This document shows, one piece after another, positions 1 to 58,681 of a DNA stretch of 64,000 bases. The position numbers and the translations under genes were made by a program. Numbering within the stretch: the stretch's first letter is position 1; every line of letters begins with the position of its first letter. The notes under the pieces are model-generated. The model had not been told where the DNA came from. It did no database searches and was given only the letters and a program-made list of their open reading frames with translations. Source of the DNA: a virus (Duplodnaviria > Heunggongvirae > Uroviricota > Caudoviricetes); IMG/VR virus record IMGVR_UViG_3300028042_000001, positions 92,944-156,943 of that record. The stretch is one strand, 5' to 3'.

Positions 1-33
1 AGAATCTCGGTTCGAGTCCGAGGTTGCCCACAA
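1..33 (+). tRNA. partial tRNA (3' end only, cut by window start)
   Basis: GGTTCGAGTCCGAGG T-arm followed by an acceptor 3' strand ending ..CCCACA; the 5' half lies outside the window. Confidence 0.45.
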
Positions 34-41
34 TTAAATAT

Positions 42-116
42 GCAGGGTGGAAGTAACGGTAACTTCACTTGTCTCATAAGCAAGAATATTGGCAGTTCGA
101 TTCTGCCCCCTGCGCA
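42..116 (+). tRNA. tRNA-Met/Ile2 (anticodon CAT)
   Basis: acceptor GCAGGG/CCCTGC, D-stem GAAG/CTTC, anticodon stem CTTGT/GCAAG with loop CTCATAA, T-arm GGCAGTTCGATTCTGCC. Confidence 0.65.
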
Positions 117-490
117 ATATTTTATAAAAGGAAATTTATTATGGATCTATGGATATGTGTTGTATGATGGGTTGTATTTGTGATATGTATTTTTATACAT
201 GCTTTAATCATGTGTATTATATTTGACAACTATAATATTAGTGATAATTATAGTGGTTGGATTATAGAATTTCCTAATAAATATAAACGGTTTTTTCTAT
301 TTATGATTGGTGGTGTTTTTTGTTGGGTTTATATTGGGGTTGATTATATTAGATATAAAGTTTCATGTAATATTTTTACAATAATATATAAATGGTTTGG
401 TACAAAATAATATATAAGGAGATATATATGTATAGTAACGGAGGAATTGGTTTTTTATAAGTAATTCAACTTAACTTATAGGAGACTAAA

Positions 491-850
491 ATGAGCAGAA
501 CGTACAGAAGAAGAAAGGGTGAAAAGCCTTCGTCTTGGATAACACATGAATATATATGTGTTGATGAATATACACGTAAAGATAAAGTTATTTTAATATC
601 ATGGATACGTGGATTGTGGAAAGATATTCCTAGAACTGGAAATGATTTAAAAAAACATCTTGCTATATATCATGCTGATGGTTATAGTCATATGAATCAT
701 GTTCCTTCTTGGTTTGTGAATCAGTATTTTACACGCAAGGATAGAGCAAAAGAAAGGCAAGAGCTTAAACGAATTATGAAACGTGGTGGTGAATATGATG
801 ATTATTCATTTCGACCATATAGAAGGGGTGCTCTTTGGGAATGGTGGTGA
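491..850 (+). CDS. hypothetical basic protein (119 aa)
   Basis: ORF with upstream GGAG; K/R-rich N-terminus; no recognisable motif. Confidence 0.4.
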   Translation: MSRTYRRRKGEKPSSWITHEYICVDEYTRKDKVILISWIRGLWKDIPRTGNDLKKHLAIYHADGYSHMNHVPSWFVNQYFTRKDRAKERQELKRIMKRGGEYDDYSFRPYRRGALWEWW

Positions 851-1192
851 ATACAAGGGTATTAAATTAAAGGAATAACGTTATGAAGCAGAAAGAGTTT
901 ATTGAATATATGATAAAAGAAGTTGATAAGTTTTCTGGTGAGATGGATGATTATGATGAGATGGACTTTGAAGAATGGTATGATCAATGGGATGCATTTA
1001 TGACCGATTGAATCATAAAGAACGTGTATATTGGGTGCTCCCATTAATCTTGCTATTAGAACGCTGGATATACATATGAATAGGTTGGCTACTCCAAAAA
1101 AAAAGTAGTCGTGAAATAGCATATAATAATACATATATTATATGGAATGATACTAACGTAATGGGTAAGACGGACACATAACCGTCAATAAT

Positions 1193-1266
1193 GGTCTTGT
1201 CATCCAACGGTTCGGATAGTAGGTTTTCAACCTAAAAATCGGAGTTCGATTCTCCGCAAGATCGCA
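1193..1266 (+). tRNA. tRNA-Glu (anticodon TTC)
   Basis: acceptor GGTCTTG/CAAGATC, anticodon loop TTTTCAA, T-arm GGAGTTCGATTCTCC. Confidence 0.65.
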
Positions 1267-1271
1267 TATAT

Positions 1272-1363
1272 TCTCTTGATAGCCTATTTCTGATCAGATG
1301 GGCGAGTAAAGTTCTCATAAAGGGACATTGGGTATTGTAGGTTCGAATCCTACCAAGAGAGCA
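1272..1363 (+). tRNA. atypical long tRNA-like element (92 nt)
   Basis: perfect 7-bp acceptor pairing TCTCTTG/CAAGAGA and canonical T-arm GTAGGTTCGAATCCTAC; the D and anticodon arms cannot be folded canonically. Confidence 0.35.
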
Positions 1364-1368
1364 AAAAT

Positions 1369-1443
1369 GCCTATTAAACATTTATTGGATGATGTCTGCT
1401 CTTGTAAAGCAGGGAAGGGAGATCGTTACTCTCAATAGGCTCA
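1369..1443 (+). tRNA. tRNA-Thr (anticodon TGT)
   Basis: acceptor GCCTATT/AATAGGC; anticodon stem CTGCT/AGCAG with loop CTTGTAA. Confidence 0.6.
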
Positions 1444-1513
1444 AGTACATTACGAACTTCTTGTTTGTATAAATACTATTATAGGTATTTACTTCACAAC
1501 AGGAGATTGGTAA

Positions 1514-2167
1514 ATGAGAAAAGGAATGAGTTGTTCTGAATCTGGTAAATTAGGAGCATTGAAATCAAAGGTCATACAAGAAACAAAGTTACAAGATAGA
1601 AAAGAAAATTATTACATGATACCAAAATTATGTGAGTATTGTGGTAATATAATAAAATATAAGAAAAGACATAATAGGTTCTGTAATAGATCATGTTCAG
1701 CTTCTTTTAATAATAAAGGAGTTAGGAGACATGGAAATTCAGATAATAACAAAAAAGAGAAGGTTTGTTTGTGGTGTGGTGGATCAGATTTCAGTAAAAA
1801 TTCTAAGAAATTTTGCTCTATGGAATGTCATCACAAATATGAATATTATATATTTATTAATAAATGGAAACTTGGTATTGATAATGGCAACAGAAAAAAT
1901 TGCATAGCAAACCAGATAAGAAGGTATTTATTTGATAAGTATAATAATAAATGTTCAAGGTGTGGATGGAAAGAGATAAATCCAATCACAAATAAAGTTC
2001 CTCTCGAAATAGAACATATTGATGGTAATCATAAAAATAATAATGAATATAATCTTGATTTGATATGTCCTAATTGCCATTCTTTAACACCAACATATAA
2101 ATTATTGAATAAAGGTAATGGACGTTATTATCGTAAAAAACGATATAATTCTGGAAAGAGTTATTAA
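1514..2167 (+). CDS. HNH endonuclease, Cys-rich, putative homing endonuclease
   Basis: C-terminal HNH motif EIEHIDGNHKNN..LICPNCH; multiple CxxC pairs; TATAAATA (T4 late-promoter-like) 39 nt upstream. Confidence 0.75.
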   Translation: MRKGMSCSESGKLGALKSKVIQETKLQDRKENYYMIPKLCEYCGNIIKYKKRHNRFCNRSCSASFNNKGVRRHGNSDNNKKEKVCLWCGGSDFSKNSKKFCSMECHHKYEYYIFINKWKLGIDNGNRKNCIANQIRRYLFDKYNNKCSRCGWKEINPITNKVPLEIEHIDGNHKNNNEYNLDLICPNCHSLTPTYKLLNKGNGRYYRKKRYNSGKSY

Positions 2168-2188
2168 ATTAAAACAAAGGAGATATAA

Positions 2189-2842
2189 ATGAAAGAAAAT
2201 TATTGTCATATAGTTGGAATTATTGATTGTTCTGGATCTATGGTTGGATTAGAAAATGATGTAATTGGTGGGTTTAATAAATTTGTTGATGATCAAAGAA
2301 AAGCAAAAGGTACAGCAACTATGTCTTTAATTCAATTTGATGATGGTTATTATTCAGATTTTGAATTTGTTAATATTAATGATGTTCCTGATTTAAATCG
2401 TGATACTTATATTCCTCGTGGTATGACTGCATTGTATGATGCTATTGGAAAAACTATTAATTCTACAGGAGAGGTTCTTAAAAATATGAATGAAAATGAT
2501 CGTCCTGATCGGGTTGTTGTTTTTATTCAAACTGATGGACAAGAAAATAGTTCTTTAGAATATAATGCAAATTCAATAAAGCAAATGATTAACAAACAAG
2601 AAGAAATGTATAATTGGTCTTTTGTTTTTCTTGGCGCTAATATTAATGCAAAAAGTACAGCTAATATTATTGGTATTGATAAAAAAATGTCAATGACTTT
2701 TGCCGCAAATAGTAAAGGAACAACTTCAGCGTTTAATTCTGTATCTGAGAATCTTTCTGCTGTTCGGTGTGGAACTAAATTAAATATGTGTTATGAGAGT
2801 AAAGATTATAGTGCTCAAGCTGATGCAGGTCTTCATATTTAA
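2189..2842 (+). CDS. von Willebrand factor type A (vWA) domain protein
   Basis: N-terminal MIDAS motif IIDCSGSM (DxSxS) and vWA-like length/layout; RBS AAGGAG. Confidence 0.6.
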   Translation: MKENYCHIVGIIDCSGSMVGLENDVIGGFNKFVDDQRKAKGTATMSLIQFDDGYYSDFEFVNINDVPDLNRDTYIPRGMTALYDAIGKTINSTGEVLKNMNENDRPDRVVVFIQTDGQENSSLEYNANSIKQMINKQEEMYNWSFVFLGANINAKSTANIIGIDKKMSMTFAANSKGTTSAFNSVSENLSAVRCGTKLNMCYESKDYSAQADAGLHI

Positions 2843-2927
2843 TATAAAAACCCTTGACATTCATTAAAAATATGATTATAGTATTTTTAATGAATAATGT
2901 ATATTAAATTTTGAGGAGGATTACATC

Positions 2928-3185
2928 ATGAAATACAATCAAATAGTTAATAAAATTCGTAGTGTTGTTTATAGTTGTGAAACTAATGAGCAATTAGATG
3001 TTGCTTGTAAATATTCATTTTTGTTAATTGATAATTATTTCATAATTAACAAAAATGATAATATTGATGAACGATATGATAAAATTTTTTTAAAGAATGA
3101 AATGTATAATTGGCTTAAATTTATTACTGTTAATAATAATAACATTAACAGTAGAATTATTGGTGTATGTGAAAAAGAAATATAA
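2928..3185 (+). CDS. hypothetical protein (85 aa)
   Basis: ORF with GAGGAGG RBS. Confidence 0.4.
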   Translation: MKYNQIVNKIRSVVYSCETNEQLDVACKYSFLLIDNYFIINKNDNIDERYDKIFLKNEMYNWLKFITVNNNNINSRIIGVCEKEI

Positions 3186-3193
3186 AAAAAAAT

Positions 3194-3268
3194 GGGGCAT
3201 TAGCCCACGCTGGTAGAGGCACAAGGTTTAAGCCCTTGATAGGATCGGTTCGACTCCGATATGCCCTA
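3194..3268 (+). tRNA. tRNA with anticodon TAA (Leu by standard code) but short variable arm
   Basis: acceptor GGGGCAT/ATGCCCT, anticodon stem CAAGG/CCTTG, loop TTTAAGC, T-arm ATCGGTTCGACTCCGAT; paralog of the tRNA at 15761. Confidence 0.6.
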
Positions 3269-3636
3269 ATTATATGCTGAAATTCCTTTGAATAGGTATG
3301 GATACATAATGGTTTGATTCCATGATTTCAGCTCCATTTTTTTGGATGTATAAATAATAATATGAAATCGTTTAGAGAGTTAAATAATAATGATGTTTGT
3401 GTAAATTGCAAACATTGGCTGAAATTAATGAAGCAACATTCTCATCGTAATACATGATATTGTAGAAAAATAGGAAACAAACCTTCTTTATTTGATAAAT
3501 GGGATGTTACTGATTTTGATAATACATGTATTGATTATAAAAGAAGGAAAAAAATAAAATGAAATTTTATAAACATAAACAGGAAAAATACAAAGGAATT
3601 TAGACCATACATACAATATCGGTCTATATTCACTAT

Positions 3637-3711
3637 GGATCGGTGGCGCAACTGGATTAGCGCATCAGGTTTTTACCCTGAATGTTGAGAGTTCGAATCT
3701 CTCTCGATCCA
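3637..3711 (+). tRNA. tRNA-Lys (anticodon TTT)
   Basis: acceptor GGATCGG/TCGATCC, anticodon stem CAGG/CCTG with loop TTTTTAC, T-arm GAGAGTTCGAATCTCTC. Confidence 0.75.
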
Positions 3712-3760
3712 CAATAATGAATGTTATGAAAAGCTTTAAAAAATGTAAAAAAATAAAAAT

Positions 3761-3837
3761 GCGGATTGATAAGTTAAGGGTTTTGACAAACAGTTTTCCA
3801 AACTGTAAATATGGAGTTCGACTCTCCCGATCCGCTC
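3761..3837 (+). tRNA. tRNA-Gly (anticodon TCC)
   Basis: acceptor GCGGATT/GATCCGC, anticodon stem ACAGT/ACTGT with loop TTTCCAA, T-arm GGAGTTCGACTCTCC. Confidence 0.7.
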
Positions 3838-4123
3838 AATAATGGAATTTATGAATTGGTTTAAGAGAATATTTCATATACATAAATGGTTTTTATTATC
3901 ATATGAATGGTGATGCTATGCGTATTTGTGTTAAGTGTGAATGTATTCAAATTAAGAATAACAATAAATGGAATAAGAAATGAAAGTATCAAGAAACAAC
4001 AATCATAGAAGTAACTCGTATATTATGGCTATTACGCCTGTATGTGTGTCTGTGCGCTTTTTTGATGCGTATCCTATAGTGAAAACTATGTAGCTCATTT
4101 CCTTTATATTAGGAAAACCTGAA

Positions 4124-4160
4124 GGGGGAAATGAGATTAAATCTTGTTTCCCCCTTTTTT
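4124..4160 (+). terminator. rho-independent terminator
   Basis: GGGGGAAA...TTTCCCCC hairpin followed by TTTTTT. Confidence 0.6.
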
Positions 4161-4261
4161 ATTGATCTTTGAAAATAGAATATTGAAAGTATGGTATATC
4201 CATAACTATCACTATACCAATAAGTATAAATATTAATATACTTATAAAATAGGAGATTGTA

Positions 4262-4867
4262 ATGGATATAACTATAGCTAATGTAAAAAGGTTAATTAAA
4301 GATGGATTTACACAGAAACAAATTGCAGAAGAATTTGATATTAGCCCATCTGGATTAAGATATTGGTTAAAAAAATATAATTTAAAAACTAATTATATGG
4401 TTGATAGAAGAACATGGACTGACGATATGCTTATTGAAGCAGTTTCTAAATCTATTAGTATAGCTGATGTTATACGAAATATTGGTTTATCATTAAGACC
4501 GGGGAATTATCCAACAATTAACAAAGTTATAAAACGCCTTGATCTTGATATATCACATTTTAAAGGAAAATCTCATGGTAATGGTGGTATTGTGTATGAG
4601 TTAGAAGATGTTATGATTAGAAATTCTCCATATTCAAGAACATCTTTAAAGAGGAGGTTGTTAAAATGTAATATGATAGAGAATATATGTGATATATGTG
4701 GTATTGGTGAATGGAATAATAAACCAATTGTGATGGTACTCGATCATATAAATGGAATTAATAATGATCATCGTAGAGAAAATTTGCGAATGATATGTCC
4801 TAATTGTAACAGCCAACAAAATACCTTTTGTCGTAGAAATAAAAATGGGGGTATAGCTCAGAGGTAG
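4262..4867 (+). CDS. HNH endonuclease with N-terminal HTH, putative homing endonuclease
   Basis: HTH-like FTQKQIAEEFDISPSGLRYWLKKY; HNH motif LDHINGINNDHRRENL..CPNCN; TATAAATA at 4225-4232 upstream; 3' end overlaps the next tRNA. Confidence 0.75.
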   Translation: MDITIANVKRLIKDGFTQKQIAEEFDISPSGLRYWLKKYNLKTNYMVDRRTWTDDMLIEAVSKSISIADVIRNIGLSLRPGNYPTINKVIKRLDLDISHFKGKSHGNGGIVYELEDVMIRNSPYSRTSLKRRLLKCNMIENICDICGIGEWNNKPIVMVLDHINGINNDHRRENLRMICPNCNSQQNTFCRRNKNGGIAQR

Positions 4868-4919
4868 AGCATTACCGTGAAATGGTATGTGTCGAAAGCT
4901 CGAAACTTTCTATCCCCAC
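4847..4919 (+). tRNA. tRNA-like (anticodon GAA, Phe?) with imperfect acceptor stem
   Basis: D-arm TAGCTCAGAGGTAGAGC, anticodon loop GTGAAAT, T-stem GAAAG/CTTTC; two mismatches at the base of the acceptor stem. Confidence 0.45.
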
Positions 4920-4927
4920 AAACATAT

Positions 4928-5011
4928 GGAGAGTTGGCAGAATGGCTATTGCACCCGGCTGTAACCCGGCAGTACCTTTTTAGGTTCTTGGTTCGAGTCC
5001 AAGGCTCTCCA
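4928..5011 (+). tRNA. tRNA-Tyr (anticodon GTA), long variable arm
   Basis: acceptor GGAGAGT/GCTCTCC, anticodon stem CCGG/CCGG with loop CTGTAAC, long variable arm, T-arm TTGGTTCGAGTCCAA. Confidence 0.65.
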
Positions 5012-5040
5012 CAATTTATAATATATATATAACAAAAGAC

Positions 5041-5068
5041 TTGACTTTAAATTTATATAGTGTATAGT
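5041..5068 (+). promoter_or_regulatory. sigma70-like promoter (TTGACT-16-TATAGT) with conserved leader, copy 1 of 3
   Basis: consensus-like -35/-10; followed by leader CATACTTGAGACAAACATTAATTATGGAGAACATAATG, which recurs at 53702 and 51799. Confidence 0.5.
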
Positions 5069-5108
5069 GTATTCATACTTGAGACAAACATTAATTATGG
5101 AGAACATA

Positions 5109-5471
5109 ATGACAATTGACGTAGAAAAATTTCTCAAAGAATATATGAATGAAATGGAAATTAGACTTAATCGATTAGAAAACAGCATTAAACCACGAGG
5201 AATTATATGTGGTCAGAATTGGATTGTTAGAGTTAAAGGTATTTGTGTTACTCCTGAATTTGATAAAGATGGTCAAACAACAGGTGTAGTTAAAAATAAT
5301 GATCCTGATCTTGTTATGAGATTTGTTCAAGAAGATGCTGAAATGCTTGCTTCTACAACAACTAACGGTGCTGGTGATAAAGGTGAATCTGTTATATGGG
5401 CAGATGCAGTAAGGGATTTAATTGAAGAACTTAAACCTCAACTTGAAATATTGAAGAATCGTAAAAAATAA
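5109..5471 (+). CDS. hypothetical protein (start chosen at second ATG, after GGAGA)
   Basis: ORF; RBS GGAGA lies 7 nt upstream of ATG 5109; the track start at 5067 is inside the conserved leader. Confidence 0.45.
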   Translation: MTIDVEKFLKEYMNEMEIRLNRLENSIKPRGIICGQNWIVRVKGICVTPEFDKDGQTTGVVKNNDPDLVMRFVQEDAEMLASTTTNGAGDKGESVIWADAVRDLIEELKPQLEILKNRKK

Positions 5472-5477
5472 ATAAAT

Positions 5478-5563
5478 GGATGCTGTCAGTAAGGTTAGAT
5501 GGTCTAACGGTTGGTTGTAACCCAACTCCCAAAGGGCATGAGGTTCGATTCCTCCGGTATCCA
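5478..5563 (+). tRNA. type II tRNA (apparent anticodon GTA; long variable arm)
   Basis: acceptor GGATGCT/GGTATCC (with G-U pairs), anticodon stem GTTGG/CCAAC with loop TTGTAAC, variable stem CCC/GGG, T-arm GAGGTTCGATTCCTC. Confidence 0.5.
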
Positions 5564-5918
5564 CAAAAATTGAGGTAGTATTATTATTATGTTTATACCA
5601 GATTGTATTATATATTCAGAAGTAAGACCGTCACCAATTATCACATATTATATCGTTGCTATGTTTGATCATAGTGGTGATTGTGATAAATGGCATTATA
5701 CTAATCCTGAAGTATGGGTATAAATTTAAAGAAGTAACGGATATATTATGAAATTAAAAAGATCAAAGATTAAAAAATTTCATGAAGGTGATGTGTATAA
5801 TTTCGTGAATGGTGTTGCAAAAGTTCCTAATATGTTTTTTGGTAGAGGTATAACAAGAGAACAAGCAACAGTATCATTAAAAGATTTTAATATTTTTATT
5901 AAAAAATAGATTATTTAT

Positions 5919-6095
5919 GCCACATTAGCTCAGTGGGTAGAGCGGTTGGAAAAGCGTCATAATTGATTTTTGTATTTAATATTGTATAATAGACTTAATT
6001 AATCCATTATACAATATGATTATAAGAATGATTGTACATAATTTCTTATAATGTTATTTAAATTAATTGCACAGGTTCGAATCCTGTATGTGGCT
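5919..6095 (+). tRNA. tRNA gene interrupted by ~110-nt AT-rich intervening sequence (possible intron)
   Basis: 5' part GCCACAT TA GCTCAGTGGGTAGAGC (acceptor plus D-arm); 3' part ACAGGTTCGAATCCTGT ATGTGGC, T-arm plus a perfectly complementary acceptor strand, about 130 nt downstream. Confidence 0.5.
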
Positions 6096-6216
6096 CATAG
6101 TATAAGTTGTCAAGTAGCTCTTGACTGATGTGGGAGTTTTTCAGTTCCTTCCTACAAAGAATATATAAGCGCTGATAATATTGCAATAATCGGTAATAAC
6201 TGACCAAATTTGTACA

Positions 6217-6292
6217 TCAGAATGTAGGCTAATGGTAAGCCCTTCCTCTTGGACAGGAAAAATTAGAGGTTCGAGTCCTCTCATTCTGACCA
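6217..6292 (+). tRNA. tRNA-Pro (anticodon TGG)
   Basis: acceptor TCAGAATG/CATTCTGA, anticodon stem TTCCT/AGGAA with loop CTTGGAC, T-arm AGAGGTTCGAGTCCTCT, CCA encoded. Confidence 0.75.
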
Positions 6293-6680
6293 TTTTTATT
6301 ATATTAAATAGATGATATCACAGTTGAGGGATATGAGAGTAGGATTTAATTCACAATCTCATTGAAATTACCTATGTATTACGAGGGTTGATCTCCTTAA
6401 TCTATTTGTTTTAGACCAATAATACTGATACGCAAGCGGTCTATTTAGTATAATATTTTTACTTGAATTAAAAATTAAAAAAAAAAGAGGATATTATGAA
6501 AATTTTTTGGAAAGTTGATGACGGATATGTTAATAATGTAGAGCATATGACTGAAATTCCTGATGAAGATTTGGAAGGAATGTCACCAGATGTTAGAAAA
6601 ATGGAAATTGATGAATGGGTTTCTGACGATTTCTCTCAAAATATTTCTTTTGAGATTATCAGAGAAGAATCATAATTAAT

Positions 6681-6856
6681 GTCCTTCGTTGGCTGTCGTA
6701 TGTGAATTTCCTTACAAGGAGCGCATATTAACCATGAATCGGATATGCGAAATTGTAAATACGGATCATGAACTGGTATTAACTTGATACCTGAAGATGG
6801 AACCCTGAAGCTACTGTAAGGGTAGATAAGGCAAGGTTCGATTCCTTGGAAGGGCA
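6681..6856 (+). other. tRNA-like element: T-arm plus acceptor 3' end, with complementary acceptor 5' strand 170 nt upstream (insertion or fragment)
   Basis: CAAGGTTCGATTCCTTG GAAGGGC A at 6832-6856 pairs with GTCCTTC at 6681-6687; intervening sequence has no canonical D/anticodon arms. Confidence 0.3.
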
Positions 6857-6880
6857 CATTTTAATTGACATTGCATGGGT

Positions 6881-6943
6881 ACAGGTGTACAATGAAAGCT
6901 CATATCTTTCATGTAGTGGGTTCGATACCCATACATGCAACCA
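6881..6943 (+). tRNA. tRNA-Met (anticodon CAT), compact D-arm
   Basis: acceptor TTGCATG/CATGCAA plus CCA; anticodon stem TGAAAG/CTTTCA with loop CTCATAT; T-arm GTGGGTTCGATACCCAT. Confidence 0.6.
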
Positions 6944-7026
6944 AAAATAATAATGATAATGTGAAAAAAAAAATGAATATATAATATTAGAAATGTTTAT
7001 AGTTGAAAAACCTGATCAGGAAATAT

Positions 7027-7100
7027 GGTCTTGTGGCTCATTGGTAGAGCGGTACGTTGTCAGCGTATTTTAAGAGGGTTCGATTCCCTTCAAGATCGCA
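7027..7100 (+). tRNA. tRNA-Asp (anticodon GTC)
   Basis: acceptor GGTCTTG/CAAGATC, D-arm GGCTCATTGGTAGAGC, anticodon loop TTGTCAG, T-arm GAGGGTTCGATTCCCTT. Confidence 0.75.
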
Positions 7101-7350
7101 TGAGGATTATTATTTAATTCTCTTTGATAGTAGGTACATACTGTTATTAATTTAACACCATGAACCGTGGGATGAAAAATATTCCCAAAAGTTTAGGGTA
7201 GAGAATGATCTTATTAACCATTTGATTATATCTATCCTTGGTGAAGATGCGAGAGTAGTAAGGTAGCTGTGGTGGTATATCTGAAATCAACCATTAGTAG
7301 CCTAAAAAATTATTGTTAGATTAATAACTATTCGATGAGTAGTTATTGAT

Positions 7351-7424
7351 GTGACAGTAGCTCAAAGGTTAGATCATGTGGCTGTGACCCACAAGATGAG
7401 GGTTCGATTCCCTCCTGTCACCCA
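7351..7424 (+). tRNA. tRNA-His (anticodon GTG)
   Basis: acceptor GTGACAG/CTGTCAC, D-arm TAGCTCAAAGGTTAGA, anticodon stem TGTGG/CCACA with loop CTGTGAC, T-arm GAGGGTTCGATTCCCTC, CCA. Confidence 0.75.
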
Positions 7425-7450
7425 TTTAAATTAAAAAGGATATATATTAT

Positions 7451-7771
7451 ATGAAAGTGATTGATGCAGGACATACATATTTACTTGATGATAACAAATC
7501 ACCAACAAATACTACAACATTAACATTTATGAAGGATGCTAAAATAAATGGAGATGGTTATGAAGGAACAACTAATCAGGAAGTTTTACGAGCATTAATA
7601 GATCGTATTAAATTTCTAGAAGGGCAAGTTCATCATAGATTTAATGATGATATTATTGGTCATCTTAGGATGGCATTGGTTCTTCATGAAGAACGACATT
7701 TAGAACGATTAGTAGAACGAGGAGAATCTATAGAAAATATTAAACCTAAAATTACTGGACATTTTGTATGA
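7451..7771 (+). CDS. hypothetical protein (106 aa)
   Basis: ORF with AAGGA RBS; ATGA overlap with the next gene. Confidence 0.45.
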   Translation: MKVIDAGHTYLLDDNKSPTNTTTLTFMKDAKINGDGYEGTTNQEVLRALIDRIKFLEGQVHHRFNDDIIGHLRMALVLHEERHLERLVERGESIENIKPKITGHFV

Positions 7772-8130
7772 ATAATAAGGAATTGTTATTTTCTATAACA
7801 AAGAAAGATTTTGATTTGTATTGGTTTTCTGGAACTGGTGCTGGTGGTCAAGGACGTAATAAGCTTCAGAACAGCCTTAGATTGTCTCATAGACCATCAG
7901 GAGCATCATCAACAGGGCAAAGTAGTAAAAGTAGAGTTGCTAATCAGAAAGAGGCATTTAAAGGTATTATGGAACATCCTAAGTTTAAGATGTGGTATAA
8001 TAAAAAAATTATGGAGTGCTTATATGAAGAAACAACTGAAGAAAAAATTAAAAAACAAATGATTCCTGATAATCTACGAATAGAAGGTAAAGATGATAAA
8101 GGTAGATGGAATAAAATTATAGAAGATTAG
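7768..8130 (+). CDS. ArfB/RF-1-domain-like GGQ-motif protein (putative peptidyl-tRNA hydrolase / ribosome rescue factor)
   Basis: FSGTGAGGQGRNKLQNSLRLSHRPSGASSTGQSSKSRVANQKEAF parallels the ArfB GGQ domain pattern (..GAGGQHVNKT.TAI.L.....Q.R....N), followed by a basic tail. Confidence 0.6.
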   Translation: MNNKELLFSITKKDFDLYWFSGTGAGGQGRNKLQNSLRLSHRPSGASSTGQSSKSRVANQKEAFKGIMEHPKFKMWYNKKIMECLYEETTEEKIKKQMIPDNLRIEGKDDKGRWNKIIED

Positions 8131-8193
8131 TCTAGGGGTTAAGGCATCTCGCTTACATCGAGAATAACACTGGTTCGAATCCAGTATCTTCTA
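8121..8193 (+). tRNA. tRNA-Val (anticodon TAC)
   Basis: acceptor AGAAGAT/ATCTTCT, anticodon stem TCTCG/CGAGA with loop CTTACAT, T-arm CTGGTTCGAATCCAG; 5' end overlaps the stop of the upstream CDS. Confidence 0.7.
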
Positions 8194-8201
8194 AATTATA
8201 T

Positions 8202-8423
8202 ATGGTGAATATTATGGCATTAGTTAATGGAAAGATTTTAAAAGGTGATGATTGTCCTTATAAGAATATTTGTGATTTTATGATAACTGCCTGTAATGGC
8301 GAAGGATGTCCATTTTTGTTTAAAGATAATCATTTTTGTGAGTTTTCTTGTGGTGCCTCTAGATTTTATGCTCTTATGGAAAAATCAGAAAAATCAGAAA
8401 AAAATAAATATAAGAGTAAATAA
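8202..8423 (+). CDS. hypothetical Cys-rich small protein
   Basis: ORF; several Cys residues, no recognisable motif; GAAAAATCA x2 repeat at 3' end. Confidence 0.4.
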   Translation: MVNIMALVNGKILKGDDCPYKNICDFMITACNGEGCPFLFKDNHFCEFSCGASRFYALMEKSEKSEKNKYKSK

Positions 8424-8443
8424 ATTAAAAGAGAGAATTTATT

Positions 8444-9454
8444 ATGAATTTTAGAAAATATAGTTCTATAGAAAATACATACAGAACAAAAACAATTAAT
8501 TATATTGTTGAATGTGGATATTCTTCTGGTATATGGGTTTCTTCTTTAAAAATTCATGGTGCTAATTATAGTTATTGGAGTGATGGTGATGTTGTAAAAA
8601 AAGCTAGAAAATCAGGATTTCTTGAAGGAGAATCATTTTATGGAGATTCAACATTTAATTATGATCAAAATATATTGAATATGTTTAACAATCTTAAAAA
8701 GCAAGGAGATTTTAGTACTCTTACTGTATATGGAGAAATATATGGAGGAATATACAATCATCCTAATGTAGAAGCTATTAAAAATGTTAAAAAAGTTCAG
8801 AAAGAGGTACAATATAGACCTGATGTTAATTTTATTGTTTTTGATATAAGAGTTGATGATATATTATTAGATCATTATACTGTTGTTGAATTATGTGATC
8901 AATTTGGATTTTTTCACGTACCTGTGTTGGGAATGGGATCTTTTTATGATTTAATGAAAACTCCTGTTGTATTTCCTGATCCTCTTGGTATAATGTTGGG
9001 TTATCCAAAGTTAGAAGATAATGATGCAGAAGGATGGGTGTTAAAACCTGTTATGCCAGAATTTTTTAATAATGGTTCAAGAGTTATTCTTAAAGGTAAA
9101 AATCCTTCCTTTTCTGAAAAAAATGGTGGAAAAAAAGGAAAAATTCATAATACAATAATTGAGATGTCAAAAGAAGGAGATTATATCAAAGAAGAATTAT
9201 TGTTATATATTAATGAAAACAGACTGAGAAATGTATTATCTCATGGGGAGATTTGTAAAATAACTCAAAAAGATTTTGGTAAATTATTAGGATTATTTTC
9301 TAAGGATATTTTTGTTGATTTTTTGAAAGATAATAAAGATAAATTTGATATTATTGATAAGAAAGAACAAATCACTATAAAGAGAATTATGAACAAAACT
9401 GCTGGTGATATTATCCGGTTAAATTTTCTAAATATTATAGATGGTGAATTTTAG
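8444..9454 (+). CDS. rnlB: RNA ligase 2 (T4 Rnl2-like)
   Basis: KYSSIEN N-terminus; nucleotidyltransferase motif I KIHGANYS (T4 Rnl2 KIHGTN); EGWVLKP..NNGSRVILKGKN.SFSEK and KDFGKLLGL blocks match T4 Rnl2 closely. Confidence 0.9.
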   Translation: MNFRKYSSIENTYRTKTINYIVECGYSSGIWVSSLKIHGANYSYWSDGDVVKKARKSGFLEGESFYGDSTFNYDQNILNMFNNLKKQGDFSTLTVYGEIYGGIYNHPNVEAIKNVKKVQKEVQYRPDVNFIVFDIRVDDILLDHYTVVELCDQFGFFHVPVLGMGSFYDLMKTPVVFPDPLGIMLGYPKLEDNDAEGWVLKPVMPEFFNNGSRVILKGKNPSFSEKNGGKKGKIHNTIIEMSKEGDYIKEELLLYINENRLRNVLSHGEICKITQKDFGKLLGLFSKDIFVDFLKDNKDKFDIIDKKEQITIKRIMNKTAGDIIRLNFLNIIDGEF

Positions 9455-9700
9455 ATGGATATTATAAAAACAGGAATTGATGTATTACTTGTTAGCTGTA
9501 TTAATGATAGTAATACATTAACTATAGGTGATGTTTATGAAGTTTTAATATATCAAAATATTCCTCTTGAAAATACATATACTATTGGTGTTATTAATGA
9601 TACTGGTATTTTTGCCAAATATGATGCTAAAACATTTTCTATGGTTTATATTAAACCTGATGTTATATTAAATGATCCTAAACCAGAAGGGCCATTATAA
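9455..9700 (+). CDS. hypothetical protein (81 aa)
   Basis: ORF abutting neighbours (TAGATG junction). Confidence 0.4.
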   Translation: MDIIKTGIDVLLVSCINDSNTLTIGDVYEVLIYQNIPLENTYTIGVINDTGIFAKYDAKTFSMVYIKPDVILNDPKPEGPL

Positions 9701-10168
9701 ATGTCTGCTATAGCTTTTTCTCAAAGTGCGTATGATGAATTTGATAGTAAAGGTAAAACCACAGTAAAACGGTTTTTTAAGTCAAAAGGATTTTTTTGTT
9801 ATCCTGATGATGAGGAACGAGGAATTGATCTTCATTTTTCAAAAAAAGATCATCCAGATATTTATATAGAAGTAGCGGTAAGACATTATTTTGATTGGCC
9901 GTTGTATGATTGGAAAATAAAAGCACCATGGGAAACAATTCATATTTTACGAAGAAAGGCTAAATATGGAAGACCTGAACCGTTTTGGTATGGCGATAAA
10001 GCATACTTATTCGAACTTAATAGAAGTATGGAACAAGCTTTTGTTATAAGACCTTGTGATTTACAAAAGAAATATTTAAAACTTCTAACTAATGTTCGTG
10101 GGAAGGAATGGATTTATGATATTCCTGTAGAAGAATTTAAAATATTTGATTTAAGAATGCATCAGTAG
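9701..10168 (+). CDS. hypothetical protein (155 aa)
   Basis: ORF; no recognisable motif. Confidence 0.45.
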   Translation: MSAIAFSQSAYDEFDSKGKTTVKRFFKSKGFFCYPDDEERGIDLHFSKKDHPDIYIEVAVRHYFDWPLYDWKIKAPWETIHILRRKAKYGRPEPFWYGDKAYLFELNRSMEQAFVIRPCDLQKKYLKLLTNVRGKEWIYDIPVEEFKIFDLRMHQ

Positions 10169-10234
10169 TCAAATTGGATTGGCACAAGATTACGAATCTT
10201 GATTGATGTGGGTTCGACTCCCATCTGGTGCTCA
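10159..10234 (+). tRNA. tRNA-Arg (anticodon ACG)
   Basis: acceptor GCATCAG/CTGGTGC, anticodon stem CAAGA/TCTTG with loop TTACGAA, T-arm TGGGTTCGACTCCCA. Confidence 0.6.
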
Positions 10235-10240
10235 AAATAT

Positions 10241-10316
10241 GCGTCTGTAGCTCAGTTGGAAGAGCACGAGATTTCTACTCTCGGTGTCGGAGGTTCGATC
10301 CCTCTCAGGCGTTCCA
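10241..10316 (+). tRNA. tRNA-Arg (anticodon TCT)
   Basis: acceptor GCGTCTG/CAGGCGT, D-arm TAGCTCAGTTGGAAGAGC, anticodon stem CGAGA/TCTCG with loop TTTCTAC, T-arm GGAGGTTCGATCCCTC, CCA. Confidence 0.75.
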
Positions 10317-10339
10317 TAATTAATATAAAGGAGGATGAT

Positions 10340-10840
10340 ATGGAAAGGGTGATAGTGTTAAATTATGATTATAGTTTTCTAAATGTTGTTTCTCCTGAAA
10401 AGGCTTTTTCTTATATAGCTCGTGGAAAGGTTATTGTTGAAAAAGTAGCGGATAAGGTCTTGACAACTGCTGAAAAATCATTTAAAATACCTGTAATTGT
10501 TCGGTTCTCTTATATGATAAGACAAATATATAAGAGAAAAATACCATGGAGTAAGCGTAATGTGTGTATCAGAGATAATTATACCTGTGCATACTGTGGT
10601 GTAAAAAGTGATATAATGACAGTTGATCATGTTATACCTAAAGCTCATGGAGGAAAAAACACTTTTGATAATTGTGTTGCATCATGTAAGAAATGTAATA
10701 ATAAAAAAGGTGATAAAACATGTAAAGAAATAGGAATGTTTCCTTCTCATAATAGAACACATCCTACTGTTTCTGACTTCATGCGATTATGGTATAAACA
10801 ATATAATGTAAATGATATTATAAAATCAATATGGGAGTGA
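10340..10840 (+). CDS. HNH endonuclease
   Basis: CAYCGVKSDIMTVDHVIPKAHGGKNTFDNCVASCKKCNNKKG HNH motif; RBS AAGGAGGA; the track ORF start at 10199 is translated tRNA sequence, so the start was moved to the ATG at 10340. Confidence 0.75.
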   Translation: MERVIVLNYDYSFLNVVSPEKAFSYIARGKVIVEKVADKVLTTAEKSFKIPVIVRFSYMIRQIYKRKIPWSKRNVCIRDNYTCAYCGVKSDIMTVDHVIPKAHGGKNTFDNCVASCKKCNNKKGDKTCKEIGMFPSHNRTHPTVSDFMRLWYKQYNVNDIIKSIWE

Positions 10841-10844
10841 TAAT

Positions 10845-11057
10845 ATGAGTACAACTGCATTAGATATACAAAAATTTAATTTATGCGAATATAAAGCTAG
10901 AGAAAATGATATTATTATTGATGTTAAATCTGAAGGATTTTTATTGACAAGAAGATCAGATTATTGTATACTTGGAAAAATCTTAACTGTAGAAGAGATG
11001 TATAGTTATTTTTGTGGTTATGAATCAGGATTAGATAAGGGGTTGTCTGATAGTTAA
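10845..11057 (+). CDS. hypothetical protein (70 aa)
   Basis: ORF only. Confidence 0.35.
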   Translation: MSTTALDIQKFNLCEYKARENDIIIDVKSEGFLLTRRSDYCILGKILTVEEMYSYFCGYESGLDKGLSDS

Positions 11058-11078
11058 ATATTAATACGAGGGTATATT

Positions 11079-11486
11079 ATGAATTTTAATCCATATGGTG
11101 TTTGGGAAGTTACTACAGAAGGTGATTGTGAAGGAAGAAGCATAACACATCTTGGTACATTTACGGGTTATTTTGATGTTATAGCTTTAAATCTTGCAAA
11201 ATCTTGTTATTATACTCTTGATTTTAAAAGAATTGATATTGGTAATAATTTAGTTCCTACAAAAAATGAAGTGTCTGTTCGTATTTGGGAAATGGGAAAC
11301 AATATTAAACAATACGAACAATTATTAACAGATCGTGATGTTTATATTAAAGAAAGTAAATTTTTTAAATCTGTTATTATTTGCACTAATAATCCTATAT
11401 CTGAGGAAGAAGCAGAAGCATTAAAAGCTAGAAACTTACTTATTGAAAAAGGCTTTGATGTTGAATCAATAAAAAAATATATATAG
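11079..11486 (+). CDS. hypothetical protein (135 aa)
   Basis: ORF with GAGGG RBS. Confidence 0.45.
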   Translation: MNFNPYGVWEVTTEGDCEGRSITHLGTFTGYFDVIALNLAKSCYYTLDFKRIDIGNNLVPTKNEVSVRIWEMGNNIKQYEQLLTDRDVYIKESKFFKSVIICTNNPISEEEAEALKARNLLIEKGFDVESIKKYI

Positions 11487-11491
11487 TATAT

Positions 11492-11563
11492 GTCTATGTT
11501 CGATGGTTCGGTGTGCTGTCTGCAAAATAGTAAATAAGGGTTCGATTCCCTTCATAGACTCCA
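11492..11563 (+). tRNA. tRNA-Cys? (anticodon GCA)
   Basis: acceptor GTCTATG/CATAGAC perfect; anticodon loop CTGCAAA with a G-U-containing stem; T-arm AAGGGTTCGATTCCCTT; CCA. Confidence 0.55.
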
Positions 11564-11567
11564 ACAT

Positions 11568-11664: not shown

Positions 11665-11710
11665 AATATATAGTATATTTAATAATATATAATATAAAAA
11701 GGAGATTATT

Positions 11711-12157: not shown

Positions 12158-12182
12158 TATACAAAATAATACACATTAACTA

Positions 12183-13125: not shown

Positions 13126-13133
13126 TTTTTAAT

Positions 13134-55830: not shown

Positions 55831-56075
55831 TACTTAAAACAAAATATAGTATTGATGATAATGTTATATTTCAAACACAATCATCAGGAAAACCCTTGAC
55901 AGGATGGATACATCATGTTAAGATGCAGGTGTTCAAAGTAGAAACTAAAGGTAATGTAAGAATGTGTAATCATACTATCATTATATATTATCAAATAAAA
56001 GATACATTAGGAAGAATTTGGATTGCTCTTGAAGAAGATATTAAAGGGTTAAGAAGAGATTTAATAAAATTATAA
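55827..56075 (+). CDS. hypothetical protein
   Basis: ORF. Confidence 0.35.
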   Translation: MILKTKYSIDDNVIFQTQSSGKPLTGWIHHVKMQVFKVETKGNVRMCNHTIIIYYQIKDTLGRIWIALEEDIKGLRRDLIKL

Positions 56076-56090
56076 CAGAGGAAATTTATT

Positions 56091-56444
56091 ATGAGTGTAA
56101 TGAAACCAACAGCAGGAGAAGTATCATCTCTTAAAGGTACTGAAATTATTTATGTGTTTGATGAATCTAATGGAGATATACTTAACGGAAAGGTGTGTAA
56201 AGCTTATGTAGCTCAATCTGATGTTGATAAAGGTATCACTATTATGGGCCATCTTCCTGATGATGGTGATGATGTGCCTGATTGTGTAATTCAATGTTGT
56301 AATTCTCATGGAAACCCTGATAGTGAGGATTATATAGAAATTCTTAATAAATACATCACATTAATAAAATCAGGAGTTTTTGAAGATAATACTGCTAGTG
56401 GTGGTGATGTATATTATATGAATGAATCTTGTGCTTTTAGTTAA
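56091..56444 (+). CDS. hypothetical protein
   Basis: ORF with GAGGAAA RBS. Confidence 0.4.
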   Translation: MSVMKPTAGEVSSLKGTEIIYVFDESNGDILNGKVCKAYVAQSDVDKGITIMGHLPDDGDDVPDCVIQCCNSHGNPDSEDYIEILNKYITLIKSGVFEDNTASGGDVYYMNESCAFS

Positions 56445-56476
56445 AAAAAAAATAATAACCTAAAAAAGGTAATATC

Positions 56477-56923
56477 ATGATTAAATTAAATAAACTCGAC
56501 AAACCTAATACCATCTACGCAGAAGTTATTGAAGATGGTGCTTTGACTCAATTTATAACTGCTATGGAACAACATTTTACTGTTCGTGGTGCGCTTATGC
56601 CTGATGCTCATTTAGGATATACTTTGCCTATTGGTGCTGTTATCGAAACTGAGGGTGTTGTATATCCTTCTTATGTTGGTTTTGATATTGGGTGTGGTGT
56701 GTGTGCTCTTCCTTTATCATGTAGAACTGGTGATATCAAACATAAAGCTCATCGAATTTATGAAATGATTAAACGTAATGTTCCTGTGGGATTTAATAAA
56801 CATAAAAACTCTGTTAAAGAGTCGTATAATTTTTTAGTAAATAAAGATAATTGTACTAAAACTATGCATGAAATTTATCATAATAAAAATGGTGATCTTC
56901 AGCTTGGTACTCTTGGGGGTGGT
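56477..56923 (+). CDS. rtcB: RtcB RNA ligase, exon 1
   Basis: RGALMPDAHLGYTLPIGAV, GFDIGCGV, ..LGTLGGG at exon end (conserved GTLGGGNHFIE is completed by exon 2); the ORF continues into the intron for 10 codons before a stop. Confidence 0.8.
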
Positions 56924-57991
56924 AAAATGACTGCTTCCAGCCCAAGAGGATAATCTAAATATACTGAAATCTCTTCTGATTGACTTGGAAATCCAGTAGC
57001 GAGGATGACAGGGGGCAAGCGTAAAGGTAGCCTGAGAGACTGAGTGAAGAGACTCAACAAAATGTGAGAAGCGACAGTCCGATCTACAGTATAACCTTAC
57101 GGGAAGCTGTAGAGACAACCAGAAATGAGTTGTCCGTTGTTTCAATGAAATGGTATCAAATATCCTGTTTGTATAAATAATATAAACAGGAGGATTTATG
57201 TTAGATAATATTTCAAACAATGATTTTAGTTATATCGTAGGATTTTTACAAGGTGATGGTAATTATTACAAACAATCAAGAAATCGGGGAAAAGTAACAA
57301 TAGAGTTATCTATTAGAGATAAAAATATTATAACCAAGATGATTGATAACCTCTCAGAATATAAATGTTATTATTCTGAGAGGAAAAGAAATACTAATTT
57401 TAAAGATTGTTTTGAATCTTGTAAATTAAGTATTTATGAAAAACGGTTCAGGGATGAAATAGAAAAATACATTCCTGAAGGAAACAAATCACATATTATA
57501 GAACCACCTTTAAAAGAAGATTGGTTTTCTTCGTTTGATTATTTAAGAGGAATATATGATGCTGATGGTAGTATTGGTATAACTGGTAATAATAGACCGT
57601 TTATATCATTATGTACTGATTCAAAACCGTTAAAACAGTTTGTAATAAGAATATTAAATGATAATATTGGTATTGTAAAACGCATAAATCGTAACAAAAG
57701 AGACAATATATATAATATTGTTTGTTACGATGAAGATGCTGTTAATTTTGCTGATTTATTATATAATAATTCTGATATGTATTTAGACAGAAAGTTTGTT
57801 AGTTATAAAAAAATACAATCATGGGTTAGAACCACACCAAAACGAAAGGGAACTAAGAAAACATGGTTGCCTATTGAAGATAAAATAATAATGAATAATG
57901 ATTATTCATTAGATGAAAAGGTTATCTTACTCAATCGTAGTAAAAGTTCTATCAAGACTAGAATATGGAGAAACAATAGTAACAAAACATG
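56924..57991 (+). mobile_element. group I intron in rtcB carrying a LAGLIDADG homing endonuclease gene
   Basis: exon 1 ends with U; P1-like pairing CTCTTGGG / CCCAAGAG across the 5' splice site; intron ends with G immediately before exon 2 codon AAT (N of NHFIE); locally GC-richer structured core 56950-57170. Confidence 0.7.
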
Positions 57992-57992
57992 A
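57198..57992 (+). CDS. LAGLIDADG homing endonuclease (double motif), intron-encoded
   Basis: YIVGFLQGDGNYY and YLRGIYDADGSIG motifs; TATAAATA at 57172-57179 with AGGAGG RBS; stop codon overlaps the 3' splice site. Confidence 0.75.
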   Translation: MLDNISNNDFSYIVGFLQGDGNYYKQSRNRGKVTIELSIRDKNIITKMIDNLSEYKCYYSERKRNTNFKDCFESCKLSIYEKRFRDEIEKYIPEGNKSHIIEPPLKEDWFSSFDYLRGIYDADGSIGITGNNRPFISLCTDSKPLKQFVIRILNDNIGIVKRINRNKRDNIYNIVCYDEDAVNFADLLYNNSDMYLDRKFVSYKKIQSWVRTTPKRKGTKKTWLPIEDKIIMNNDYSLDEKVILLNRSKSSIKTRIWRNNSNKT

Positions 57993-58681
57993 ATCATTTT
58001 ATTGAGATTGGTATTGATGATTATGATTGTCCTTGGATTATTATTCACTCTGGATCAAGAGGAGTTGGTCATGGATGTGCTACTCATTATATGAAAACTG
58101 CTCATCCTAATAATAAAGCAGGAGAAGGTCATTATGGATTCATGGTTGATTCTGATAATGGTAAAAATTATATAAAAGATCTTAATTTTTGTTTGGATTT
58201 TGCTTTATTGAATCGTAAAGTTATGTTGCGGTTAGTTGTTGATTCTATTAAACAACTTGGTATTGAATGTAGTGGTGATTGGGAAAATATGATTAACAGG
58301 AATCATAATCATGCAGAGTCTAAAGATGGTATTCATTGGATTCATCGTAAAGGTGCTACTCATGCAGAGAATGGTATGCTTGGAGTAATTCCGGGTAATA
58401 TGCGTGATGGTTCATTTATTGTAAGAGGACTTGGTAATGAAGATGCTTTATGTTCGTCATCTCATGGCGCTGGCCGGGTTCTTGGACGTAGAAAGGCTAA
58501 AGAGAATCTTGACCTTAATGAGTTCAAGGATACTATGGAAGGTATTGTTGCTAATGTGGATTCTGGTACTCTTGATGAATCTCCTATGGCTTATAAAAAT
58601 ATATTTGATGTAATGCGTCTTCAGGATGGTCTTGTTGATGTTATTACTCATATTAAACCTATTATTAATGTAAAAGGATAG
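57992..58681 (+). CDS. rtcB: RtcB RNA ligase, exon 2
   Basis: NHFIEIG, HSGSRGVGH, HNHA, SSSHGAGR blocks characteristic of RtcB C-terminal half. Confidence 0.8.
   Translation, partial: NHFIEIGIDDYDCPWIIIHSGSRGVGHGCATHYMKTAHPNNKAGEGHYGFMVDSDNGKNYIKDLNFCLDFALLNRKVMLRLVVDSIKQLGIECSGDWENMINRNHNHAESKDGIHWIHRKGATHAENGMLGVIPGNMRDGSFIVRGLGNEDALCSSSHGAGRVLGRRKAKENLDLNEFKDTMEGIVANVDSGTLDESPMAYKNIFDVMRLQDGLVDVITHIKPIINVKG

Follow-up and report, generated by a model that had tools for sequence, protein, structure and literature searches.

Does a phage that carries many tRNA genes together with three RNA ligases, an enzyme that adds CCA and a small release-factor-like protein possess a counter-defence system against host enzymes that cleave tRNA? 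This question is raised by a 64,000-nucleotide stretch of a Caudoviricetes genome (positions 92,944 to 156,943 of IMG/VR record IMGVR_UViG_3300028042_000001), which was analysed over its full length and is referred to here as the window. An earlier note on this DNA had read the genes as a counter-defence ensemble. The present analysis shows that the repertoire is a translation-maintenance gene set, neither an operon nor a single system; its family assignments suggest that it would keep phage translation running once host defences aimed at tRNA fire, a reading held with slightly more belief than doubt. Of the earlier proposal, the family assignments and the standard comparative-genomic inference stand, whereas the notion of one system does not, the genes being dispersed; the counter-defence reading is plausible and had been published before (Iyer et al. 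2021).

The five enzymes that had been named (GGQ protein, Rnl2, CCA-adding enzyme, Rnl1 and RtcB) sit where they had been placed, with catalytic motifs intact (Table 1), and hidden Markov model (HMM) checks returned a match for each protein to its expected family (RF-1, RNA_ligase, PolyA_pol plus HD, RNA_lig_T4_1 and RtcB, respectively). For the Rnl2 at 8444, both domains are recognised (PF09414, 55.9 bits; PF18043, 63.3 bits) and both align with T4 Rnl2 (2HVQ), the motif-I lysine being kept in KIHGAN, the counterpart of KIHGTN in T4. For the Rnl1 at 43710, PF09511 matches with 56.5 bits (cut-off 28.3), and KADGSL aligns with KEDGSL of T4 Rnl1 (2C5U), retaining the lysine of the K-x-DGS motif I. 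This Rnl1 is a divergent member of its family, since it scores 71.7 bits against TIGR02308, below the equivalog cut-off of 242; its alignment with T4 Rnl1, which has a C-terminal tRNA-specificity domain, ends at query residue 291 of 364. Homologs of Rnl1 occur in 236 phage records.

The CCA-adding enzyme with an HD domain at 36165 is borne out by its PolyA_pol head, its RNA-binding domain, an HD/HDIG domain (37.7 and 33.1 bits) and the motifs GGxVRD..DxD (A), RRD (B) and EDxxR (D), and it aligns with the CCA-adding enzymes 6IBP and 1MIV. Its best NCBIfam and PDB matches are CCA enzymes, all below equivalog cut-offs, and PcnB models match too. The HD domain of E. coli Cca has phosphatase and 2',3'-cyclic phosphodiesterase activity. 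For the phage enzyme we infer a simpler job, the maturation of CCA-less phage tRNAs, because 18-19 of the 25 tRNAs detected in the window have no encoded CCA.

The third ligase, RtcB, has an interrupted gene. The earlier note had placed RtcB at 56477; family and start were right, and it had not mentioned that RtcB is more than one open reading frame (ORF), a 1068-nt intron interrupting it after codon 149, between GGG and NHF. The spliced product of 378 aa aligns end to end with uninterrupted homologs of 365-385 aa, with 53% identity to uninterrupted phage RtcBs and up to 81% to metagenomic homologs. The segments DIGCG, GNHF, HSGSRG, NHN and SSHGAGR align with D95/C98, N202/H203, H234, H329 and H404 of the P. 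horikoshii enzyme, so that the metal ligands and the guanylylated histidine are all conserved. An intronless allele (L091) reads ggtggtggt/aatcac at the same codon (the slash marks the splice site here and below), matching the predicted junction. The split is unlikely to be an assembly artefact, because the European Nucleotide Archive assembly of the same phage (L005) shows an identical one. RtcB homologs were found in 703 phage records.

Several features of the intervening sequence point to a mobile group I intron, and by these signs the RtcB product requires its splicing out. The 5' splice site is preceded by U and the intron ends in G (..caug). A P1 hairpin with a U-G pair at the splice site (ggtggU/aaaaugacu-GCUUCC) is lengthened by CUCUUGGG/CCCAAGAG, and a P10 of 7 bp pairs intron AAAAUGA with UCAUUUU of exon 2. 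The minimum free energy fold recovered P1, P8 and P9 together with a hairpin that sequesters the ribosome-binding site of the endonuclease (fold z = -4.1). In five distinct intron homologs, with helices assigned by hand, P3, P6, P7, P8 and P9 pair despite sequence differences, with covariation in P3 (CUCUUC/GAAGAG versus CCUUUCC/GGAAAGG) and P7 (GACUG/CAGUC versus GACUA/UAGUC). The Rfam group I model (RF00028) gave no match on the window's intron, whether with the gathering score, with E<=1 over 1.35 kb or with E<=10 over the 300-nt core, and the call is based on hand analysis, on the homologs and on the parallel in Bacillus phage BSP36, where Rfam scores 72.6 bits on an intron at the identical RtcB codon. 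An intein was considered, LAGLIDADG_3 being often intein-borne, and was rejected: the endonuclease lies in another reading frame, is cut off from either exon by stop codons, and Hint blocks are missing.

The missing Rfam match would also suit a gene broken by a free-standing homing endonuclease, whose halves are now non-functional or made as separate polypeptides; an in-frame ATG directly before exon 2, overlapping the endonuclease stop codon (ATGA), could permit separate translation. This explanation is barely credible given the P1 U-G pair, the P10, the terminal G and the fold score, the helices that pair in all five homologs and the Rfam-positive intron of BSP36. Additionally, no catalytic residue is missing from either exon, and their identity to intact homologs is 76-81%.

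Splicing of a group I intron is therefore retained as the reading of the RtcB gene, and its relatives suggest a composite history. BSP36 and related Bacillus phages share the insertion site (GGT/AAT), a homologous LAGLIDADG endonuclease and the position of its ORF 3' of the ribozyme core. The cores differ: that of BSP36 is Rfam-positive, whereas the one in the window has homologs in several IMG/VR contigs and in Roseobacter phage CRP-118, whose ribonucleotide reductase gene is split by an ORF-less intervening sequence of this kind. The homing endonuclease is 38-39% identical to the RtcB-intron endonucleases of Bacillus phages and about 30% identical to intron-encoded ones of Staphylococcus phages, and its TGA stop codon straddles the 3' splice site. 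By these comparisons, made with window positions 56924-57991, L003 2159-3278 and L004 about 1982-2381, endonuclease and target site are common to unrelated phage lineages with different ribozyme cores, which suggests that endonuclease and core have been swapped between introns.

The tRNAs are concentrated in an array at the start of the window. The earlier figure of about 28 was too high, as ARAGORN reports 22 tRNAs, or 25 at a relaxed threshold, and Rfam 17 at the gathering score; 24 of the 25 lie within positions 1-15835 and one outside. Because bases 1-32 form the T-arm and acceptor 3' strand of one further tRNA, the array extends upstream of the window. Its decoding set is almost complete. 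The tRNA-Lys(UUU) noted before was found by ARAGORN at 3637-3712, and the statement that most of the tRNAs lack a genomic CCA is correct, with CCA encoded in only 6-7 of the 25.

Two tRNA genes are peculiar. The one at 13051-13125 combines an initiator-like C1-A72 mismatch and a GGG/CCC anticodon stem, and yet has an anticodon loop of 8 nt (AUAUAUGA). It had no counterpart among 250 tRNAs of the other loci compared, and the window showed no canonical initiator tRNA. A second phage tRNA with an 8-nt anticodon loop was noticed on an unrelated IMG/VR contig (L076, 5507-5582; CUCUUAAC, 'ctta'). The other peculiar gene, at 40115-40186, stands 24 kb from the array and has a weak acceptor stem with two mismatches at its top. 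HNH or HNH-like endonuclease ORFs are dispersed in the array (1514-2167, 4262-4867, 10199-10840 and 14605-15057); of these four, 10199-10840 alone gives a Pfam HNH match, 4262-4867 gives a helix-turn-helix match, and 1514-2167 and 14605-15057 were called HNH-like by sequence inspection.

Inside the array, the GGQ release-factor-like protein expected at 7768 is present: Pfam RF-1 matches with 36.4 bits (cut-off 35), PHROG 3122 'RF-1 domain peptide chain release factor' with 5e-18, and the GGQ motif occupies residues 26-28 of 120. It belongs to a phage family of about 107-137 aa (156 database clusters, 132 IMG/VR stretches) with the invariant block FSGTGAGGQ.RN. In a fold comparison with its AlphaFold 2 (AF2) model (pLDDT 86.5), the GGQ domains of RF1/RF2 matched best, PrfH came 18th and ArfB 46th, and the C-terminus of the model consists of helices and a beta-hairpin that are conserved across the phage family. 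PrfH is its best PDB sequence match, in an alignment limited to the GGQ domain (PrfH residues 110-167).

ArfB recognises stalled ribosomes with a basic C-terminal helix, by which the empty mRNA channel is probed. The phage protein resembles ArfB/ICT1 as a stand-alone GGQ domain without a codon-recognition domain and differs in having neither the long linker nor the basic helix. By hand count, its last 50 residues carry about +12/-11 charges (net about +1), and this region is conserved and non-basic across 20 homologs; the label ArfB-like was accordingly dropped. As modelled, it is a stand-alone release-factor hydrolase domain without the ArfB basic tail or the PrfH recognition domain.

The surroundings of the GGQ gene are partly kept in a relative (L216), whose proteins are about 60-66% identical and whose tRNA order is the same. 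In the window, a 106-aa ORF overlaps the GGQ start by 4 nt (ATGA-type translational coupling), and tRNA-Val, a 73-aa ORF and Rnl2 follow. In L216 the order is HD-domain protein, GGQ, 63-aa ORF, Rnl2 and HNH, with a Gad2-like homolog at the array end. Only this part of the repertoire, the tRNA array with GGQ, Rnl2 and the Gad2-like gene, is kept there. The HD-domain protein of L216 (9292-10008, 238 aa), which overlaps the GGQ gene start and is missing from the window, is a candidate partner of GGQ-Rnl2 in the healing of 3' ends; the 106-aa ORF was considered as its equivalent at the same position and was found not to be homologous. In an unrelated 146-kb phage, an RNA ligase and a HAD 'Swiss-army-knife' phosphatase lie no more than 3.5 kb upstream of the GGQ gene.

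A kinase was sought across the window. Whole-window Pfam scans (E<=0.001) gave no polynucleotide kinase or HAD match, and a phmmer query with T4-type Pnk gave none in the window plus 10 kb downstream. The sole P-loop ORF (41699-42271) was rejected as Pnk, being like a deoxynucleoside monophosphate kinase instead, as was ORF 44804-45328 directly after Rnl1, which has no P-loop, no DxDxT motif and no family match. The earlier statement that the phage has no polynucleotide kinase thus holds for the 64-kb window and does not extend to the genome, of which the window is about 42% (metagenomic contig of at least 152.6 kb, genome about 153-157 kb). By family analogy only, the calcineurin-type metallophosphoesterase at 24648-25385 is a possible 3'-end healing enzyme. 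It is the first of three overlapping genes (24648-26761) among the replication genes, followed by a NADAR domain protein and a DHH phosphoesterase. NADAR is a family of ADP-ribose-processing enzymes, and the trio may be a further anti-defence or nucleotide-signal-degrading cluster.

RtcB joins a 2',3'-cyclic-phosphate end to a 5'-OH end without a kinase, and the earlier remark that it needs none holds as established chemistry. In the favoured reading, phage tRNAs would replace or supplement host tRNAs, and the CCA-adding enzyme would mature those without CCA, while its HD domain could additionally clear 2',3'-cyclic or 3'-phosphate ends. The three ligases would reseal broken RNA: RtcB would join 3'-phosphate or 2',3'-cyclic-phosphate ends directly to 5'-OH ends, and Rnl1 and Rnl2 would join 3'-OH to 5'-phosphate ends after healing by enzymes outside those recognised in the window. 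The small GGQ protein, whose gene forms a mini-cluster with Rnl2 inside the array, would hydrolyse the peptidyl-tRNA of ribosomes that damaged tRNA or mRNA has jammed, and the Gad2-family nucleotidyltransferase described below would add anti-defence capacity, possibly at RNA 3' ends. The defences countered in this way would be PrrC, PARIS, OLD, retron or VapC-type effectors. Rescue of OLD tRNase toxicity by phage tRNAs has been described in the literature, and the same repertoire has been read as counter-defence (Iyer et al. 2021, PMC7824862, section 3.4.9).

A number of observations weigh against this reading. The genes are scattered over 58 kb amid replication and nucleotide-metabolism genes, and for that reason they are not one system. 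T4 Rnl1 has an additional, non-RNA role in tail-fibre attachment. No dedicated 3'-phosphatase or kinase serving the Rnl1/Rnl2 route was found in the window. RtcB falls short of the cut-off in each of the two NCBIfam short-RtcB models, and the substrate of its clade is not predictable from the family, because the bacterial RtcB2 repairs 16S rRNA and not tRNA (PMC9304027). Among 80 viral loci with a GGQ homolog, any tRNA was present in 27, and a ligase, RtcB, Pnk or HAD gene lay within 10 kb in 8, counts that are lower bounds from single-sequence searches; iteration with a mixed-family HMM lost sensitivity and gained nothing. The linkage of GGQ to repair genes is recurrent and lineage-specific, not general.

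The same observations would suit plain housekeeping, in which the tRNAs suit the decoding of an AT-rich genome, the CCA enzyme only matures tRNAs, Rnl1 is a tail-fibre factor like T4 gp63, and the GGQ protein recycles ribosomes that have stalled where phage-induced mRNA decay has truncated a host mRNA. The scarcity of encoded CCA, a GC content of about 29% throughout, the scatter of the genes, the GGQ homologs of other phages (most of them without an RNA-repair neighbour) and the many records that annotate Rnl1 as 'RNA ligase and tail fiber protein attachment catalyst' are all in line with it. Nevertheless, three different RNA ligases are hard to account for without broken RNA, the GGQ-Rnl2 adjacency recurs (with the HD protein in L216), a Gad2-family anti-defence gene lies in the same array, and in Rhizobium phage RHph_I1_18 repair genes and tRNA-Lys stand close together in one cluster. 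Housekeeping is regarded as a somewhat unlikely explanation of the whole set.

PrfH is about 200 aa long, and its N-terminal domain recognises the damaged decoding centre. The window shares with the bacterial PrfH-RtcB2 pair (Tian et al. 2022) a GGQ release-factor paralog and a short RtcB in one genome, so that the two phage proteins might together repair ribosomes, the GGQ protein freeing the peptide when a ribosome has been cut in its 16S decoding centre, and RtcB religating the rRNA. Such a role would agree with PrfH as the top PDB sequence match, with the repair of 30S subunits and not tRNA by RtcB2, and with an RtcB of the short bacterial type (about 375 aa) that gives a full-length match to the PrfH-coupled model TIGR03073. 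However, that match, at 140.4 bits, is far under the cut-off of 271.8, the 120-aa GGQ protein has no damage-recognition domain, and RF1/RF2 domains outrank PrfH by fold. The two genes also form no operon, lying 48 kb apart with GGQ adjoining Rnl2, and RtcB was within 10 kb of GGQ in just 2 of the 80 viral loci. Ribosome repair is therefore considered very unlikely, and maintenance of translation under tRNA-targeting defences remains the preferred reading.

The array also holds a gene that the earlier note had not mentioned, at 13665, whose assignment to the Gad2 family (PF26128) comes from the precomputed annotation of the sequence collection. Its product has a GG..DYD Pol-beta motif in which G38, G39, D52 and D54 are invariant in 24 homologs. 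The top 39 PDB fold matches of its AF2 model (pLDDT 83.2) consist of CCA-adding enzymes and related tRNA nucleotidyltransferases, of bacterial poly(A) polymerase and of a few FAM46/TENT5 proteins, with probabilities mostly near 1 and TM-scores of just 0.31-0.41. In a Pfam copy without PF26128, neither RlaP (PF10127) nor any other family matched at E<=5. Gad2 is an experimentally validated anti-Gabija protein and predicted nucleotidyltransferase found in phages and prophages, with activity demonstrated only in SPbetaL7 Gad2 and one homolog from Brevibacillus (Yirmiya et al., bioRxiv 2023); no description of its mechanism was found in the literature searched. The product in the window shares the family and the predicted activity; it is shorter (312 aa versus 400 aa in SPbetaL7) and its gene is embedded in a tRNA array, and an anti-Gabija role would follow by family analogy.

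It was considered whether the array-embedded enzyme acts on tRNA, in which case Gabija would kill through tRNA damage. The idea is prompted by the CCA-adding-like fold, the array place kept in L216 and the repair cluster of RHph_I1_18. Shewanella phage KASIA has a Pnk 3.5 kb upstream of its Gad2-like homolog. Confidence in the idea was lowered because the neighbourhoods of the homologs in Ralstonia phage RSP15 and Pseudomonas phage Cygsa01 are not RNA-related. Overall, a tRNA-directed Gad2 is judged quite unlikely from the model and its context.

T4 Pnkp and Rnl1 repair tRNA-Lys cleaved by PrrC. The window resembles T4 in its Rnl1 with catalytic lysine, an Rnl2 homolog, a phage tRNA-Lys(UUU) and a T4-like replication module, and differs in that Pnkp was not found in the 64 kb and that it has an RtcB route absent from T4. 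The closest published parallel in gene content is the repertoire of large and jumbo phages (Iyer et al. 2021, Viruses 13:63, PMC7824862), which includes CCA-adding enzymes, ligase-associated Pol-beta nucleotidyltransferases and peptidyl-tRNA hydrolase, and in which Burkholderia phages BcepSauron and BcepSaruman have all three ligases. The end-healing enzymes listed there are Pnk, HAD, calcineurin and HD. The present genome, by contrast, is below the jumbo range, its rescue protein is of GGQ (RF-1 domain) type rather than Pth2, its nucleotidyltransferase belongs to PF26128 (Gad2) rather than RlaP (PF10127), the window shows neither Pnk nor HAD, and RtcB has an intron.

A tighter version is found in Rhizobium phage RHph_I1_18 (MN988519.1, 160999-169973), with the order CCA-nucleotidyltransferase, Thg1-like, Rnl1, Pnk, Gad2-like, tRNA-Lys(UUU) and tRNA-Gln. 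It shares with the window a CCA-tRNA nucleotidyltransferase, Rnl1, tRNA-Lys(UUU) and a Gad2-like nucleotidyltransferase 35.5% identical to ORF 13665. Whereas that cluster is compact and co-directional and includes Pnk and a Thg1-like gene, the genes are dispersed here, with Pnk and Thg1 not found.

GC skew is positive along the whole window and nearly all ORFs are on the + strand. A family B DNA polymerase is 41% identical to cyanomyovirus gp43, and the window also encodes a UvsX-like RecA, a DnaB-like helicase, ThyX, a class II ribonucleotide reductase, a T4-type RNase H and endonuclease VII. No relative of the window was found at the DNA level among 50,697 phage records (INPHARED), and a single IMG/VR relative was found via the DNA polymerase. 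The window represents the early/accessory region of a phage that is uncultured, has 29% GC and is distantly T4-like. Two further ORFs of this genome were noted: L005 15238-15609, about 4.7 kb past the window end, matches Pfam PF25188 'Tad6' and is a candidate anti-defence gene, and ORF 33895-34704 starts like a signal peptide, contains Asn-rich repeats (NNSD, GGNNRN) and carries a PEP-CTERM sorting motif at its C-terminus, which hints at a Gram-negative host with an exosortase.

Table 1. Features of the window discussed in the text, in window coordinates.
Feature	Position	Strand	Basis and remarks
tRNA array	1-15835	+	21 tRNA genes (24 at relaxed setting) with interspersed small ORFs and HNH endonucleases; truncated by window start
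106-aa ORF	7451-7771	+	PHROG 2428, unknown function; no Pfam match
Stand-alone GGQ (RF-1 domain) peptidyl-tRNA hydrolase-like protein, 120 aa	7768-8130	+	Pfam RF-1, PHROG 3122
Rnl2-family ATP-dependent RNA ligase	8444-9454	+	Pfam RNA_ligase and T4_Rnl2_C; TIGR02307 163 bits
Aberrant tRNA	13051-13125	+	ARAGORN 'tRNA-??? (atat)'; Rfam tRNA 45.3 bits; CCA encoded
Gad2-family (PF26128) Pol-beta nucleotidyltransferase, 312 aa	13665-14603	+	Precomputed Pfam label; inside tRNA array
Calcineurin-type metallophosphoesterase	24648-25385	+	Pfam Metallophos, PHROG 1649
Class II tRNA nucleotidyltransferase (CCA-adding type) with C-terminal HD/HDIG domain	36165-37556	+	Pfam PolyA_pol (PF01743) 101 bits, PolyA_pol_RNAbd, HD
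Isolated tRNA-like gene	40115-40186	+	ARAGORN; Rfam 48.6 bits; anticodon AUU (A34, Asn)
Rnl1-family ATP-dependent RNA ligase	43710-44804	+	Pfam RNA_lig_T4_1; 33-37% identity to phage 'RNA ligase' genes
RtcB exon 1	56477-56923	+	149 codons, ends ..QLGTLGGG; Pfam RtcB, three-frame translation
Group I intron, 1068 nt	56924-57991	+	Ribozyme core 56924-57197 (40% GC); endonuclease ORF in 3' part
Intron-encoded LAGLIDADG homing endonuclease, 264 aa	57198-57992	+	Pfam LAGLIDADG_3 54 bits
RtcB exon 2	57992-58681	+	229 codons, begins NHFIEIG..; Pfam RtcB 188.7 bits

Because Iyer et al. (2021) describe the same repertoire and RHph_I1_18 has a tighter version of it, no new kind of system is claimed; the gene set was already described for large phages, and the window is a further example and not a new principle. 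The particulars of this phage are the GGQ domain in place of Pth2, the Gad2-type nucleotidyltransferase, the RtcB intron and the lack of a visible kinase in the window. From these, a homing-endonuclease intron that targets the same catalytic RtcB codon in unrelated phage lineages, with different ribozyme cores, is a lead to follow. Additionally, the small GGQ protein that several phages keep beside an RNA ligase may represent a release-and-reseal step for ribosome-bound broken tRNA. Finally, a Gad2-type enzyme with a CCA-adding-like fold among tRNA and tRNA-repair genes is a hint at the mode of action of Gad2. If the hint proved true, Gad2 would overcome Gabija through the repair or remodelling of tRNA at 3' or broken ends and not by blocking a DNA nuclease, and the adjacent GGQ-Rnl2 pair (with the HD protein in L216) would be a ribosome-coupled cassette for release, healing and sealing. 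Gabija, like its OLD and PARIS relatives, would then kill via tRNA damage in vivo.

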